Assembly: GCF_000023965.1 (NCBI RefSeq)
Contig: NC_013202.1
Location: 660,001 to 692,000 of the forward strand
From: Halomicrobium mukohataei DSM 12286
GTDB lineage: Archaea; Halobacteriota; Halobacteria; Halobacteriales; Haloarculaceae
Direction: 5' to 3'
DNA: 32,000 nt
Below the pieces are notes generated by a model. That model was not told the origin of the DNA, ran no database searches, and saw only the letters and a list, made by a program, of their open reading frames with translations. Positions 7,300 through 31,822 of the stretch are shown here, in pieces. How positions within the stretch are numbered: position 1 is the first letter of the stretch; each line of letters opens with the position of its first letter. The translations under genes and the position numbers were made by a program.

Positions 7300-7730
7300 C
7301 GCGGTCGCTGGCGGGTTGTAGCGAAAGAAGCGCGGTCGAACTGCGGTGCGGGCGAAAGCGGATGAAGTATGTGGAGTGAATGAGCAACGACTGCAACCGC
7401 CACCCTCGCGGGTCACCAGGTTTCCTGTTCGTTGGTCCAGAGGTCACTCTCCGGTTGCTCTCCCATATCGTGGCGCACGGACTACCGTGGAGCTCCTTCC
7501 TAAGCGAAAATGGAGAATAGTTTGGGATCTGGATAATAAAGCGAACCGCGATCCAATCATAAACTCTGAGCCTCGTCTTTGCCAACTGCAAAAATAATAT
7601 ACTCATAGAATCCCAGATAATAAAATTAAATCTGCTACAAAACCATAAACAACTAAGTGTCTATGAAAATGTAGGTTAGAATGGTTTAGTATAAATACAA
7701 TAGTGGCAGTTGTCCGAATGGTGTTGGAGA

Positions 7731-7740
7731 TTATAAAATA
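7731..7740 (+). promoter_or_regulatory. TATA box for the 7764 membrane-protein gene (leaderless spacing)
   Basis: ttataaaata is centred about 28 nt upstream of the ATG at 7764. Confidence 0.5.
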
Positions 7741-7763
7741 GATCCAACAGGTAATAACAACAA

Positions 7764-8273
7764 ATGAAGATAAACAGAAATTGGAAGACTATCGCGATAG
7801 ATCCGAGAAGATCGCTCGTCCCAGCAACCATCGTCCTCATTACCGGCGGTTTTCTATCGTTCGCCACGCACACGAATACCATCTCTATTCCTAGCTCATT
7901 ACGAATACTAAATATAACCTCTATTGTTGCGTTCCCGGTCATCGTTGGAACTCTCTCCTACACGTATTTCCGAACTGAGGTGTCGCTGTGGGAGATCCCA
8001 GTAGTATTCTTGTGGGGGTACATTAGTAACAACATTGTTTTGTTTATTTTGTTCTTCGCGACACTCGATTCAGCGGTATCATCAACCGCATCGCCTGGCA
8101 GTGTCGGTGTCTCCCGAGGGCTTTGGTATCTCAAATTTTTCGCACTTAGTTCCGCTACGTACTCGCTGTTATATGGATTCGCGGCAGCGCGTCACCGCAT
8201 CCTCCGCATTCTATTCTTTATTTTCACACCTATTTTGTACTGTATTATTATGATCGCTCTCTTAGTTATATAA
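7764..8273 (+). CDS. hypothetical polytopic membrane protein (169 aa, about 5 TM)
   Basis: Hydrophobic stretches SLVPATIVLITGGFLSFA, ILNITSIVAFPVIVGTLSY, IPVVFLWGYISNNIVLFILFFATL, LWYLKFFALSSATYSLLYGFAAA and ILFFIFTPILYCIIMIALLVI. A canonical TATA sits at the correct distance. AT-rich codons unlike the neighbours. Confidence 0.5.
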   Translation: MKINRNWKTIAIDPRRSLVPATIVLITGGFLSFATHTNTISIPSSLRILNITSIVAFPVIVGTLSYTYFRTEVSLWEIPVVFLWGYISNNIVLFILFFATLDSAVSSTASPGSVGVSRGLWYLKFFALSSATYSLLYGFAAARHRILRILFFIFTPILYCIIMIALLVI

Positions 8274-8510
8274 ATACTCTTTCTACCGGGATCGATCGTC
8301 CGACAGTACTTGCAGTAACAAGCATCCCATAGCGCGGCAGGTGTCTGTGTTCTCGTCGGCGCTGTCTGCACGCTGTCGGCTGGACGGACGTTCGAGTCGA
8401 AACGATGGGGCAACCGCTATTCGATCGAAAACGGAGAGAAACCGCGTTTTGCGGACGATCCGGGGGTCAGAGTACGGCCCTTGGGGTGATGTGTTGTTCT
8501 AGACCGAACT

Positions 8511-12255: not shown

Positions 12256-12362
12256 ACGCCACCTTTTGATGGCGAACGGTTTAAGGCTTGTACGGTTTTG
12301 ACCGAATCGACTCGTCCAGCGAGTGGCAACGCCCAAGTTCCCCTTGGGCCTACGACCGGGCG

Positions 12363-12773
12363 ATGAGTACGACGCTGCCCGAGGAAGCCGACGAGTGGGT
12401 CGCCGAGTGGCACGGTGCGCTGGCCGACCGGCCGGCCTTCGCCGAGGCGGCCGCCGACTTCGCCGCGACCTTCCGCTTCGAGATCACGCCGGACGACGCG
12501 TACGACGGCGATCCGATCGTCGTCCGACTGGTCGTCGACGACGGGGCGTGTCCCGTCGCCGAACTCGCAACGGAGTTCGACTACGACTTCGCGCTCCGTG
12601 GTCCCTACGAGGCCTGGAAGGCGATGTTGCGGGGCGAACTCGACGCGGCCGAGGCCGTCATGGACGGCCCCTTCAGAGTCGAGGGGAACACGATCGAGTT
12701 GCTCCAGCATCAAGAGGCCGTCGCGGAGCTCGTGCGGGCAGCCCGAGACGTGGACACGACGTTCGCGCACTGA
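12363..12773 (+). CDS. SCP2 sterol-binding domain-containing protein
   Basis: Trimmed to the ATG at 12363 ([12 protein letters not shown]...). The C-terminal ..[33 protein letters not shown] resembles the SCP2 fold signature. Confidence 0.7.
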
Positions 12774-12947
12774 GAGTCGTCGTTTCGCTCGCTCGATCGG
12801 CTATGTTCAAATAAGTGGCCACAGGACAGGCGTACAGGCAGGGGAACACTCGCTTTGCTCATCTCTCGACACTGCTTCGCTGACCGCAGTATCTTGTTGG
12901 ACCACCGCAACGACGACGACAGCACTACGAACGCATCCTGGCTGTTA

Positions 12948-13130
12948 TCACAGATACTGATATATCCCCCAGAATAATAGAGCGACTCCCAAGAAAAAGA
13001 ACGCTGCCGTTGGAATATCGTACGTGATTATATCTAGCAACCGCAAAACACCGTACGCGAGTAAGAGTACACCAAAAACAAAGACAGAGATCGTCACCAG
13101 GCTAGTCTTTTTATCTGAATTTTGAGTCAT
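12948..13130 (-). CDS. hypothetical small two-TM membrane protein (60 aa)
   Basis: MTQNSDKKTSLVTISVFVFGVLLLAYGVLRLLDIITYDIPTAAFFFLGVALLFWGIYQYL has two clear hydrophobic helices. It has its own TATA at the right distance. Short, so coding status is unproven. Confidence 0.45.
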   Translation of the reverse strand: MTQNSDKKTSLVTISVFVFGVLLLAYGVLRLLDIITYDIPTAAFFFLGVALLFWGIYQYL

Positions 13131-13152
13131 TAATTAGTGAATTTCAGTAGAT

Positions 13153-13163
13153 CTACATAAAGG
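13153..13163 (-). promoter_or_regulatory. TATA box for the 60-aa membrane ORF
   Basis: The reverse strand reads CCTTTATGTAG, centred about 28 nt upstream of the ATG at 13130. Confidence 0.4.
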
Positions 13164-13346
13164 TCCCGCTTTATTTTTCATCCCGTGCACAGAAAGCCCG
13201 GTTCTATTCGAAGGTGGATGCTGTAAGTTGGGCGGCGATGCCCTCTGTAGCGTTGCTGGAACAGTTCGGAATGAAACAGTCCGTCTGTCTACTTCACGAA
13301 CGACAGGGTGAATACGACCCACTCTCTGCGCCTTCGCGTCTAAAGG

Positions 13347-14120
13347 TTACTCTGACTGTGAGTGGACCGTCGGCGTTGCTGTAATAGGTGCAGCAATGAC
13401 AGCAGGGGTGATCCGCGACTTCACAACGACTCCGCAACCGTTATTCTGCAAATTAATAGTTCCAATATATATTGCGACTATCCCGCCAAGAGCGACGGTA
13501 AGCGGGTTGGACATCGAGCCAATCACACCTGCACTTTTCAGGGTTGCAGCAACGACTGCTGCCGAACCACTCCCGATCGACCCGAGAGCATTGAGATCGT
13601 CGATAGTGGAATCACTCATGTACAGTTCGACATCCTTTCGAGTTCCGCCCCACTTCGTGTCGACGTTCGAGTCGTCTCTATTACATCCCAGAGCGGTGAT
13701 CTCCGATGTCTCACCCAGATCTGCCGACTCAAGAGAGGTTGTAGAGGGGCTCTCGACGGAGTCTACCGCTTTAGCTATTTCCGACGGCTCAGAATGGACC
13801 TCAAAATCACCTCCTTGGTCTGCCGAGTCGGCCGTGAGAGTTTCCTGTTCGCTTGTCGTGAAGGTTATGTGTCCTGCTTCGATCGCCAAATTAAAGCTCT
13901 TGACAACGTGTGTGAACTGTTTGTGTAGTTCACGCCCGATATCTTCAGGCTCGGCGTCGAGTACAACTTTCCCATCTTCGATCACGATCCAGTCGATTGC
14001 GGGATCTTCTGTGGTAGTCGATGTGGACTCTGCTCCCCCAAGACCACTGCTAACTATTCCGCCAAGCGTTGAACCGGTGAGAGCCATCATAGCCCGCCGA
14101 TTGAGATGTCTTTTTGACAT
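13347..14120 (-). CDS. Tat-signal precursor protein with acidic pro-region and Gly-rich hydrophobic C-terminus (function unknown)
   Basis: MSKRHLNRRAMMALTGSTLGGIVSSGLGGA has a twin-arginine motif and an h-region. The middle is acidic and Ser/Thr-rich. The C-terminal part is ..ALGCNRDD..LNALGSIGSGSAAVVAATLKSAGVIGSMSNPLTVALGGIVAIYIGTINLQNNGCGVVV... The track start is 14129 (MEVM..). The ATG at 14120 fits the TATA spacing better. Confidence 0.65.
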   Translation of the reverse strand: MSKRHLNRRAMMALTGSTLGGIVSSGLGGAESTSTTTEDPAIDWIVIEDGKVVLDAEPEDIGRELHKQFTHVVKSFNLAIEAGHITFTTSEQETLTADSADQGGDFEVHSEPSEIAKAVDSVESPSTTSLESADLGETSEITALGCNRDDSNVDTKWGGTRKDVELYMSDSTIDDLNALGSIGSGSAAVVAATLKSAGVIGSMSNPLTVALGGIVAIYIGTINLQNNGCGVVVKSRITPAVIAAPITATPTVHSQSE

Positions 14121-14140
14121 CACTTCCATTCAAAATCAAT

Positions 14141-14152
14141 AGATTAAAATAG
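14141..14152 (-). promoter_or_regulatory. TATA box for the Tat-precursor gene
   Basis: The reverse strand reads CTATTTTAATCT, centred about 26 nt upstream of the ATG at 14120. Confidence 0.45.
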
Positions 14153-14364
14153 TTTTTGGTTTTTACTTTTTGAGATATGATTATAGAACAGATATAGGAG
14201 TGAAGTAGCCTCTCAGTGGTCCGCCAGTATCTTGCTCTGGTCAATTGCAGACACAGAAAGAAATCGGAGACTGCTCTTCGAAAACGGGTTCGAATCAGAT
14301 CGAAGAGACGCAGCTGTCGCCGCGGACCACAGCCCTTACCTCCCTCCCTCGCACCAGTCGGAGT

Positions 14365-14565
14365 ATGTTCGACAAACTCGGGATCGCCGGTCTCCTCGGC
14401 GTGGTCGTCATGCTTGGCGGCATCGCGCTGGTCGCGTGGCAGGCACCTATCGTCGCCGCCGGCATCGCCTTCGTCGTCGCCGGCCTCGGACTGATCGTCT
14501 ACGGGATGGTCACGAACCTGATGAGCGCCTTCGGCCTCGGCGGCGGCATGGGCGGGATGCCCTAG
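14365..14565 (+). CDS. hypothetical small membrane protein (66 aa, 2 TM, Gly/Met tail)
   Basis: Trimmed to the ATG at 14365: MFDKLGIAGLLGVVVMLGGIALVAWQAPIVAAGIAFVVAGLGLIVYGMVTNLMSAFGLGGGMGGMP. GC3-rich codons. Confidence 0.55.
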   Translation: MFDKLGIAGLLGVVVMLGGIALVAWQAPIVAAGIAFVVAGLGLIVYGMVTNLMSAFGLGGGMGGMP

Positions 14566-30350: not shown

Positions 30351-30692
30351 TCAGTCACCTTGGAAGAGATTTACTAGAGTGGTCCCAGCCCACCACAGAG
30401 AAACGAGAGCGACCAGACCGCCAAACCAAGCAGGGATGTCGGTGCTGATGAACATAACGGCTCCTCCGGCGATCCCGATGGCGAAGATCCCCAGCTGAAC
30501 GTACCGTATGTCGTTATTCGTGGTATCGACCGTCGCGAAGGCCAGGAAAACGAGCGTGACGACTACAGGGCCGATAACTGACGTGAAAACATCTCCCGTT
30601 GTCAGATACAGAACGATCGCGACTGCCGGGATAATCATCACTTCCTTCAGTTCTACTCGCTGAACGAGTCTTCCGATAGCAGATTTTACCAT
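30351..30692 (-). CDS. hypothetical 4-TM membrane protein (113 aa from the ATG; the track start 30707 is a GTG)
   Basis: MVKSAIGRLVQRVELKEVMIIPAVAIVLYLTTGDVFTSVIGPVVVTLVFLAFATV...YVQLGIFAIGIAGGAVMFI..IPAWFGGLVALVSLWWAG. Same strand as, and downstream of, the halocin-like gene. Confidence 0.5.
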   Translation of the reverse strand: MVKSAIGRLVQRVELKEVMIIPAVAIVLYLTTGDVFTSVIGPVVVTLVFLAFATVDTTNNDIRYVQLGIFAIGIAGGAVMFISTDIPAWFGGLVALVSLWWAGTTLVNLFQGD

Positions 30693-30710
30693 ATCGATCG
30701 TTCTCACCCA

Positions 30711-30817: not shown

Positions 30818-31822
30818 TCAGCAGCCGAACGCAGCTTCGCAAATAATTACTGGCGCCGCTGCACAGAGGGCCGCTCCTTGGACAGTGGTCACGTAGCGAC
30901 AGAATACGCCACAGGCTGCTGCCAGTACTGGATAGGTCGACGTGAGCGGTAGACACCGAGTCGCACAACCGTAGAACCCAAGCTGGCCAACGCCAGCGCA
31001 GATCGCGGGAATGACCGCCTTGCAAGTTGTACAGCCAATTTCTCCGTGGATGCTCTGTGGGCTGACATGGTTGTGATCTCGGTAGCTCTCAACCACCTCG
31101 GGCGTGACGCTGGCTGGGAGGTCCGTACTCTGAGCACTTATTGTATCGACTGACGGAGCCTCGGGCAGTTGTCCGGTTCGTTGACTCTGGACGATTCCGT
31201 TACCCTCTTGATGGCTGAAAAACTCATATGCAACTCGGCTCTCCGAGTCGTCGTCGGGTCGCCCACTTTTGGATGAACGGCTGACACTCGTTGGATCATC
31301 GTGAAGGGTGACCGCACTGGCAGAGACTGGGACTCGACCGGTTCCGTCGCTGGACTGGACTGAGAGGCCCGAGTCGATCTCGGTGTCCGGTTCGTCAACC
31401 ACCCCAGCGAAGAGAACACCGAGATCCTTCGGAGTGGTATTCTCCCATGAGGCGTCGGGTTCCTTCAGGAGTGAGACAGCTAGTGACGGATTAAGTGAGT
31501 TCATCCTTTTGTGCTGGCTCTCAATTTCGATCGACAGGGGGAGCACGTCTTCCACTGTCCGTCCCGTCTTTTCACTCACCGTCTGGCGGAGTTCGCTAAG
31601 CGCGTCAGAGTTCTTGATGACGGAGAGATCGTCGTGAGCCGCCGAACGAAGCTTAAATTTGGAGCCTGCGAATTCCTCACTAGCCTTGCCGGGCCCAGAT
31701 GAGCCTCGGTCCGCTGTGGCGATACCGACACCACCGAACAGACTAGCACCGGCTGCAACTCCCCGAAGCATTTTCCGCCGATTCATGTCACTGCTAGCAC
31801 CGATTTCATTGTCAAACGGCAT
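30818..31822 (-). CDS. halocin C8-like bacteriocin precursor (Tat signal, pro-region, 10-Cys C-terminal peptide)
   Basis: SSDMNRRKMLRGVAAGASLFGGVGIATA is a twin-arginine leader. The C-terminal 72 aa are GCTTCKAVIPAICAGVGQLGFYGCATRCLPLTSTYPVLAAACGVFCRYVTTVQGAALCAAAPVIICEAAFGC. They are hydrophobic, contain 10 Cys, and the last residue is Cys. The opening G-C-x2-C-K-x6-C, a central C-x13-C and the closing C-x5-C-end match the halocin C8 pattern as I recall it. Confidence 0.75.
   Translation of the reverse strand: MPFDNEIGASSDMNRRKMLRGVAAGASLFGGVGIATADRGSSGPGKASEEFAGSKFKLRSAAHDDLSVIKNSDALSELRQTVSEKTGRTVEDVLPLSIEIESQHKRMNSLNPSLAVSLLKEPDASWENTTPKDLGVLFAGVVDEPDTEIDSGLSVQSSDGTGRVPVSASAVTLHDDPTSVSRSSKSGRPDDDSESRVAYEFFSHQEGNGIVQSQRTGQLPEAPSVDTISAQSTDLPASVTPEVVESYRDHNHVSPQSIHGEIGCTTCKAVIPAICAGVGQLGFYGCATRCLPLTSTYPVLAAACGVFCRYVTTVQGAALCAAAPVIICEAAFGC

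Follow-up and report, generated by a model that had tools for sequence, protein, structure and literature searches.

The precursor gene and its predicted fold

The window analysed here, a stretch of 32,000 nucleotides from Halomicrobium mukohataei DSM 12286 (NC_013202.1, positions 660,001 to 692,000), carries a compact cassette on its reverse strand, which comprises a gene for a 257-aa precursor with a twin-arginine translocation (Tat) leader and, downstream of it, a gene for a 60-aa protein with two putative transmembrane (TM) segments. The larger open reading frame (ORF) extends over 13347-14129(-), with the ATG at 14120 giving the 257-aa product, a start in line with those of its homologues (MSK...); including its stop codon, the gene covers 13347-14120(-). 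It is a fused gene in which family hidden Markov models (HMMs) detect both an N-terminal or A domain (E-value 3e-35) and a C-terminal or B domain (E-value 6e-37), and its orthologue in Halomicrobium katesii (P0001) is 97% identical at the protein level. Comparison of these two gives a ratio of non-synonymous to synonymous substitution rates (dN/dS) of 0.25 (nine synonymous and seven non-synonymous changes), and the large ORF is under purifying selection. A first-pass annotation, made from the letters alone, had read the protein as consisting of three parts, namely a Tat leader, then an acidic stretch, then a hydrophobic C-terminal segment with one Cys at either side, these two being the only ones in the protein. 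This division was confirmed, with the cysteines at positions 146 and 229.

The predicted Tat signal peptide comprises residues 1-30 (MSKRHLNRRAMMALTGSTLGGIVSSGLGGA; 14031-14120(-)), with the twin arginines at residues 8-9 (LNRRAMMAL) followed by 21 uncharged residues, and cleavage of the leader may occur after GGA. The same rule of an RR pair and an uncharged stretch holds for 19 of the 27 family sequences that contain an A domain and for none of the 17 stand-alone B proteins. The eight A-containing sequences which fail it seem to be gene calls with a truncation or a wrong start or, alternatively, a KR variant. The curated models TAT_signal, TIGR01409 and TIGR02811 gave sub-threshold matches in homologues.

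The A domain (aa 31-124; 13749-14030(-)), as delimited by family alignments and AlphaFold (AF2), is acidic and hydrophilic. The earlier description of this part as an acidic pro-region holds for its composition, residues 31-145 being 46% D/E/S/T and 22.6% D/E. However, it is not a spacer or a simple pro-peptide, as residues 42-124 are conserved and confidently folded, with a predicted local distance difference test score (pLDDT) of 77-92 in the model made with the family alignment. Its conserved elements are a V-E-N/D-G-+-F-x-L hairpin and an F-N-x-A-I-E-x-G helix, and the model places strands at residues 42-48, 51-54, 85-88, 93-95 and 105-108 and helices at 63-81 and 112-119. Predicted disorder (pLDDT <50) is confined in this part to a Ser/Thr/acidic linker (aa 125-143; 13692-13748(-)), which is variable in both length and sequence across the family and within which the end of the A gene and the start of the B gene fall at those loci where the two are separate. 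The linker is a candidate region for proteolytic processing and cleavage may take place within it.

The B domain (aa 144-257; 13350-13691(-)), defined by the C-domain alignment and the AF2 model, possesses in order Cys146-Asn147, an LY(L/M)SD strand, an amphipathic helix, a hydrophobic helix (residues 205-225), the motif N-x-G-Cys229-G-V and a Pro-rich tail ending in PTVHSQ(SE). Its Gly/Ala/Ile/Val-rich hydrophobic segment sits between the two cysteines. Both of these are invariant in the C-domain alignment and at least 90% conserved in the full alignment; a Cys146-Cys229 disulfide may form outside the cell. The small-xxx-small spacing to which attention had been drawn in the hydrophobic segment does not go beyond composition, with 11 instances observed against 8.7 +/- 1.7 in shuffled sequences (P=0.14), and strict GxxxG is absent.

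With a family alignment, AF2 returned a confident globular model of the fused A and B domains, having a predicted template modelling score (pTM) of 0.71 and a pLDDT of 73-92 over residues 42-124 and 144-257, falling briefly at 241-245, with disorder in the linker and the signal peptide. Modelling from the single sequence was uninformative (pLDDT 32). The model implies one packed unit made up of both domains, the N-terminal part being predicted to pack with the C-terminal part in place of a simple pro-peptide. No detectable paralogy exists between the two domains (hhalign probability 0.15%). Foldseek searches of the PDB and BFVD gave no significant match (best E-values 0.34-0.56, template modelling scores <=0.2), and neither the 257-aa protein nor its family was matched in the PDB by sequence or profile. 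Self-cleavage in the manner of the N-terminal nucleophile (Ntn) hydrolases, with the Cys at the domain boundary, was also considered but is unsupported: Foldseek matches to proteasome-beta and Usb1 are noise, and counting further against it, one to three residues separate the initiator Met from the Cys in most stand-alone B proteins.

The hydrophobic helix of the B domain could be taken, along the lines of an alternative in the first-pass annotation, as the C-terminal anchor, alone or with a further helix, of an ordinary Tat-exported surface protein held in the membrane of its producer, the small downstream ORF being unrelated or accessory. Tat-dependent C-tail-anchored proteins are an established class, and the helix is TM-competent in most members, its maximal 19-residue Kyte-Doolittle hydropathy (KD19) being 1.71 in the 257-aa protein, with a family median of 1.88 and values of at least 1.6 in 27 of 31 members. 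Such an anchor is nonetheless improbable. The first helix, with its conserved charged residues, does not resemble a TM segment, while the second is less hydrophobic than the TM segments of the neighbouring membrane proteins described below (median KD19 1.88 against 2.34) and is followed by approximately 30 conserved residues, including the invariant GCGV and the terminal Gln, which are predicted with high pLDDT to form beta-strands. A single TM segment would also place the two conserved cysteines on opposite sides of the membrane, and the signal-less stand-alone B proteins would adopt a topology opposite to that of the fused forms unless B hitch-hikes.

The small membrane ORF and the low-GC insertion

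The 60-aa ORF (12948-13130(-)) follows on the same strand, as first described, 217 nt downstream of the large ORF, and has two hydrophobic segments at residues 12-28 and 41-57. It is a candidate immunity or docking protein and lies in the position that in relatives is taken by a membrane protein gene, referred to here as C. H. katesii and one Logan contig each have an intact copy of this ORF that is 97% identical; its four differences to the H. katesii copy are too few for a selection test, and the 219-nt intergenic spacer has 12. The suggestion that the two genes are separately promoted is in keeping with TATA-like boxes approximately 26 nt upstream of the ATG at 14120 (TTTTAAT, 14143-14149(-)) and 28 nt upstream of the ATG at 13130 (TTTATG, 13156-13161(-)), although both were picked out by eye and have no statistical support. 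The position of the former implies a leaderless transcript. Scans for sigma-70 promoters and terminators are not applicable to archaea.

Both ORFs are contained in a lineage-specific low-GC insertion of approximately 1.55 kb (12778-14324), delimited by empty-site comparison, gap length and GC content, which lies between a gene of the SCP2 family (12360-12773(+)) and a DUF7470 gene (14362-14565(+)). Among 80 syntenic loci retrieved via the flanking DUF460 gene, the gap between these two genes is 39-82 bp in other Haloarculaceae (Haloarcula, related genomes and metagenome-assembled genomes), with one outlier of 297 bp, compared to 1675 bp here and in H. katesii DSM 19301, a strain whose proteins are 97-100% identical to those of the window. 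Homology to one such empty site (L011) stops at ~14325 and resumes at ~12777, with ~1.55 kb replacing ~37 bp. The AT-rich islet previously noted is clear from GC contents of 52.3% for the large ORF, 41.7% for the small ORF and 49.5% for the insert as a whole, against 65.1% for the window, and likewise from a GC content at third codon positions of 0.52 and 0.48 in the two ORFs against 0.88-0.90 in the flanking genes. The cassette is foreign to its site and was horizontally acquired.

A perfect 10-nt direct repeat (CAGTATCTTG) brackets both ORFs with copies at 12887-12896(+) and 14225-14234(+), a spacing of 1338 nt. As an insertion scar it is only suggestive, since 1.9 kb of sequence should contain ~1.7 such repeats by chance. 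Together with the low GC content, it may be held to favour a view of the locus as the cargo, or what is left, of a mobile element such as a virus or plasmid; a viral gene pair concerned with membranes, fusion or superinfection exclusion would be one example, and cells would not use it to compete with each other. A fused homologue (P0004) on another contig (L085 1-13666) is also surrounded by numerous small hypothetical genes as well as by those for a MarR-type regulator and a ParE toxin, in a region that is plasmid- or provirus-like, yet matches no known plasmid or phage record. Nevertheless, this explanation is very improbable. The repeat does not exceed chance expectation, no integrase or tRNA gene was found at the islet and most other loci of the family have ordinary chromosomal contexts. 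Relatives were likewise absent from IMG/VR (searched with a six-sequence subset of the alignment), from the PLSDB plasmids and INPHARED phages (tblastn), from PHROGs and from the BFVD structures; JGI data yielded one short contig.

Some further features of the islet and its surroundings should be mentioned. An indel of ~80 bp distinguishes the window (~14213) from H. katesii (L003 8328-8407) just upstream of the TATA-like box of the large ORF, with 91% identity in its flanks compared to 96.9% in the rest of the islet. The insertion is immediately upstream of the DUF7470 gene, found within an ORF of 106 aa (14245-14565(+)) in which the Pfam match begins at residue 41 and for which a start near 14362 is likely; with the insertion in this position, islet DNA has displaced the original promoter region of the gene or taken its place. 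Those proteins most closely related to the C-terminal domain (P0006 and P0007; 45-49% identity) are on contigs of 46-48% GC (L083, L098, L099), and the similarity of this to the 49.5% of the islet hints at a donor lineage among low-GC haloarchaea. Elsewhere in the window, a second AT-rich islet (7500-8400; GC 0.40-0.49) adjoins a thermosome gene and carries an ORF for a multi-TM protein of 169 aa (7764-8273(+)) with no Pfam or NCBIfam match. H. katesii also has a 169-aa gene at this site (L001 13847-14356).

Family members, gene fission and membrane partners

An exhaustive HMMER scan of 1.84 billion cluster representatives (cut-off E<=1e-3) identified 35 representatives of the family. A word-indexed protein search found the 97% identical orthologue alone and, when used with the family profile, two more new sequences. 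No significant match was obtained for A, B, C or the fused protein with Pfam, NCBIfam or the phage and anti-phage defence models of PHROGs and PADLOC, the 257-aa protein giving only noise with Pfam-A and NCBIfam at E<=1 (TetR_C_41, E-value 0.18; serine palmitoyltransferase, E-value 0.043). Literature searches found no description of the family, its absence from the archaeal toxin survey of Makarova et al. (2019) being unverified. The two genes had been put forward as undescribed, and neither a curated family nor a published description was found to contradict this. By these searches, A, B and C appear to be three unannotated families, and the predicted fold has no detectable relatives.

Family members fall into three groups, these being full-length proteins (245-266 aa), proteins with the C-terminal part only (102-123 aa) and N-terminal-only proteins with RR signals. 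The C-terminal-only proteins begin with M-(x)-Cys-Asn, that is, at the first Cys of the 257-aa protein. Columns C2, N3, L50, G84, C85, G86, V87 and Q111 of the C-domain alignment are invariant, with Gln111 at the C-terminus or a few residues away from it in most members, and homologues carry two to five cysteines. Among individual sequences, P0032 (153 aa) has the appearance of a frameshifted fused gene; P0018 (87 aa) is missing the region of the first Cys and has the second Cys replaced by Phe, so that the two losses are correlated; and P0010 (260 aa) has Asp in place of the second Cys and gains a Cys-rich C-terminal extension (...QQGCCSAACRP).

Isolate genomes in NCBI account for only two of the 30 clusters with members listed, namely Halomicrobium and Halorussus sp. 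MSC15.2, whose protein (WP_163520706.1) is annotated as hypothetical. The other listed clusters derive from metagenome assemblies, hypersaline metagenomes being the source of nearly all 35 representatives, and haloarchaeal DUF families among the flanking genes point to haloarchaea as the hosts. Flanking genes differ at every locus, and the distribution is both patchy and horizontally mobile, as with systems of the bacteriocin type.

Thirteen independent loci were read and scored with the N- and C-domain HMMs. A and B are fused in the window and at four other loci (L085, L091, L093, L097), whereas six loci have a split operon of three genes in the order A, B, C (L084, L088, L092, L098, L099/100, L101) and two have B and C without A (L083, L094-96). 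The split A proteins are 117-145 aa in length with an RR signal, the motif missing from the 117-aa call of L092, which seems mis-started. Split B proteins are of ~110 aa and signal-less, their ATG overlapping the stop codon of A as TAATG at four loci, by 4 nt in L092 and by 11 nt in L088, and split C proteins have a length of about 105-141 aa and are predicted to span the membrane with three to four TM segments. The boundary proposed at the first Cys by the first-pass annotation is therefore a true module boundary, as it is exactly there that the gene is naturally split at six loci. The two domains also differ in composition. A is typically acidic (family mean 16.7% D+E; grand average of hydropathy (GRAVY) -0.68), while B is acid-poor and hydrophobic (8.7% D+E; GRAVY +0.34, with +0.6 to +1.0 for its core), unlike soluble halophilic proteins.

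Ten of the 13 loci have a small multi-TM ORF starting within 250 nt downstream on the same strand. Of the others, L085 possesses such an ORF upstream, a weaker one is seen in L097, and L091 is too short to judge. In a background of ~2 Mb of haloarchaeal sequence, 1.3% of strand positions have such an ORF start within the same distance, and the binomial tail is 4.5e-16 when calculated for nine of 11 loci, a smaller count than the 10 of 13 observed. The adjacent, co-oriented and conserved small membrane gene to be expected of an immunity function is thus present at these ten loci. At seven loci (six split, one with B only) the partners belong to a single homologous four-TM family (E-values 1e-8 to 1e-23); the L094 partner matches the profile of this family weakly, and the two-TM partners of L093 and L097 do so weakly in its second half. 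The pairing originally proposed for the window is upheld by this recurrence, but not by homology between its 60-aa ORF and the four-TM family, and this ORF is an analogue of C by position, strand and topology only.

One of the two loci lacking A (L094-96), which has a rhomboid protease gene adjoining on the other strand, is of interest in that its B gene (L094 6911-7237, L095 889-1215, also L096) contains an in-frame TGA (...AVNYN-stop-FYYK...; GGA to TGA). The nonsense allele is present in at least three independent samples of the European Nucleotide Archive (ENA) with the overlapping four-TM gene intact, while intact alleles (P0035, P0047) are found in other samples. Disruption of B with retention of C is what would be expected if a toxin were lost and its immunity kept.

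Genes for Peptidase_S8 proteins (subtilisin-like, of the halolysin type) are near the cassette at only two loci, ~0.3 kb away in L092 (8055-9668(-)) and 4-5.6 kb away in L093 (11755-13098 and 13423-14801(+)). None occurs in the window or at five other loci, and the association is weak, though such proximity is still of some interest given that halolysin-activated precursors exist.

The organisation of these loci would also suit a membrane-bound extracytoplasmic complex with no antagonistic role, in which a folded A-B unit is exported by Tat and docks on C, serving in an accessory capacity in the envelope, in stress or in sensing; its layout would resemble that of many Tat-dependent complexes. 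The three-gene operon, the translational coupling of A and B, the conserved four-TM third gene, the stable globular unit predicted by AF2, the purifying selection on the ORFs and the lack of toxin-like homology all agree with this. Such a complex is a serious candidate but on balance an unlikely one. Cofactor-binding motifs are absent and only two cysteines are conserved; the distribution is extremely patchy, with a foreign islet and a different context each time; the partner varies between two and four TM segments, the 60-aa ORF standing apart from the four-TM family; B is disrupted in a lineage that retains C; and the composition of B is unlike that of soluble halophilic proteins.

A possible halocin-like function

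The reading we favour, with confidence a little short of even, is that the locus is a new and horizontally acquired halocin-like precursor/immunity cassette with three functional parts, A, B and C. A conflict system is preferred because of the variable genomic context, the extreme patchiness, the B nonsense alleles and the precedents of halocins and HmHapP. The export by hitch-hiking, disulfide, processing, membrane attack and immunity that it entails are inferred. A and B would fold together in the cytoplasm, where A would mask the hydrophobic helix of B, and the A-B complex would then be exported by Tat through the signal of A, with B covalently attached in Halomicrobium and travelling as a signal-less hitch-hiker from split loci. 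Outside the cell, Cys146 and Cys229 would be joined as a disulfide and B would be released, either by cleavage of the linker (e.g., by extracellular halolysins) or by dissociation. The hydrophobic helix of the freed B could insert into the membranes of rival haloarchaea, and C, here the 60-aa ORF, may shield the producer, in whose own membrane it would intercept B.

Antagonism is widespread among haloarchaea, but a survey of July 2026 names the halocins H4, C8 and S8 as the only ones known at the molecular level, with C8 and S8 being related, and several halocins described biochemically have no known gene. The C8 precursor ProC8 of Natrinema sp. AS7092 is exported by Tat and cleaved into the immunity protein HalI, which is N-terminal and binds the C8 peptide, and the C-terminal hydrophobic peptide HalC8. 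Like ProC8, the protein examined here is a single Tat-exported precursor with a separable N-terminal part, a hydrophobic Cys-containing C-terminal part and a patchy distribution; it carries a Tat motif, and the boundary, where cleavage may occur, has a disordered linker and coincides with the site of natural gene fission. It differs in having two Cys (146 and 229) in a C-terminal part of ~110 aa, compared to 10 Cys in a peptide of 76 aa, in having an adjacent small membrane protein without genes for an ABC transporter or a regulator, and in existing also in a two-gene form. As had been surmised, no resemblance to C8 or S8 was detected, the Pfam scans (which include the HalI-domain model Hac8_like_N, PF22862) and NCBIfam scans giving no halocin-family match for the protein or for other members.

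The window itself contains an ORF of 334 aa (30818-31822(-)) that has an RR leader and, within its C-terminal ~75 aa, 10 Cys, and that had been described as C8-like. Neither this nor an adjacent ORF for a 118-aa membrane protein (30351-30707(-)) has a Pfam or NCBIfam match at E<=0.01, and kinship of the former to C8 is not confirmed by curated models. The view that it does not resemble the 257-aa protein proved correct (BLASTP E-value 0.31), and it matches the family N-terminal HMM in the Tat-signal region only (E-value 1.5e-4).

Halocin H4 of Haloferax mediterranei shares with the 257-aa protein a Tat signal and a hydrophobic TM-like segment, the latter being essential to H4 activity, and H4 is suspected to act on the membrane. 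However, H4 is of ~35 kDa, has no known release of a C-terminal domain, does not have the signature of two Cys, GCGV and terminal Gln, and has no adjacent small TM partner. The tblastn search of PLSDB, whose inclusion of the H4 megaplasmid is unchecked, found no match to the 257-aa protein, nor was any halocin family matched in the Pfam and NCBIfam scans, the presence of an H4 model in these libraries being unchecked and the H4 sequence itself not directly compared. HmHapP (HFX_0892), also of H. mediterranei, is a secreted precursor activated extracellularly by halolysin serine proteases, its helical segments carrying the activity. The similarity here is that of a secreted haloarchaeal precursor with proposed extracellular activation by protease, while the active part of HmHapP is N-terminal and no dedicated membrane partner has been reported for it. 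No Haloferax protein is present among the family matches with sources shown, although HmHapP was not directly compared.

Pore-forming colicins and microcins of the colicin V (MccV) type are of note for a Gly/Ala-rich hydrophobic helix or hairpin that is hidden in the soluble form and for a small adjacent immunity protein with two to four TM segments. Microcin V has one disulfide, and colicins and class II microcins are mobile, patchy cassettes. The A-B cassette resembles these in its presumed hidden hydrophobic helix, adjacent small membrane protein, mobility and patchiness. They are bacterial, however, and are exported by ABC transporters or lysis proteins as opposed to Tat, and the receptor and translocation domains of colicins are absent from the A-B cassette, which also has no sequence or fold match to colicins or microcins. 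A circular bacteriocin, considered on account of the conserved first Cys and terminal Gln, was rejected, the B domain being of ~110 aa compared to a core of 58-70 aa, and the genes for a DUF95/SpoIIM-type membrane protein and an ATPase that occur in circular bacteriocin clusters were found at none of the loci read.

As regards export, the known Tat hitch-hiker complexes of E. coli, namely HybO/HybC of hydrogenase-2 and DmsA/DmsB with its anchor DmsC, provide for the co-export of a signal-less partner by an RR subunit. The layout of an RR subunit A, a signal-less B and a third, membrane gene C in coupled order is similar, with the RR motif in A and not in B, the TAATG overlap and, in the AF2 model, a fused protein with both domains ordered. 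HybO/HybC and DmsABC are cofactor-containing redox enzymes of core metabolism, whereas A and B are small, without cofactor motifs, rare and horizontally transferred, and their co-export is putative.

Several features speak for a halocin-like cassette: the conservation of Cys-Asn, GCGV and the terminal Gln in a family of 35 representatives, the natural fission at the linker, the restriction of the Tat motif to A and fused proteins, the ordered A+B model, the hydrophobic acid-poor B, the adjacent membrane partner, the mobility and the patchy distribution. Other points weigh against it. Antimicrobial activity, processing and immunity are putative for every family member, and in the libraries searched no known toxin or immunity protein proved similar in sequence or fold. 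Ordinary membrane-bound extracytoplasmic complexes share the layout of a Tat subunit, a signal-less subunit and a membrane subunit, and the two loci that have B and C without A would leave B with no means of export. Neither a transporter nor a regulator nor a dedicated protease accompanies the cassette consistently across loci, and homology of the 60-aa ORF to the four-TM family could not be detected (1.7 bits, with 59 of 200 shuffles scoring as well).

A more far-reaching proposal, which goes well beyond a halocin-like cassette as such and is correspondingly doubtful, is that the locus is the first representative of a fourth archaeocin family of new structure, in which a signal-less toxic subunit able to insert into membranes hitch-hikes via Tat on an acidic carrier or masking subunit, fused to it in Halomicrobium and separate in other hosts, and is countered by a two- or four-TM immunity protein. 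With respect to experiment, the cassette is compact, having two or three genes, occurs naturally both fused and split, so that the hypotheses on export and processing can be tested directly, and has a cultured host in Halomicrobium katesii DSM 19301 and probably also in H. mukohataei. Should it prove to be a halocin system, it would represent a new antimicrobial fold, a new immunity family and the first toxin exported by Tat hitch-hiking. If not, A, B and C would still constitute three uncharacterised families, together with a clear case of gene fusion and fission in a Tat substrate.

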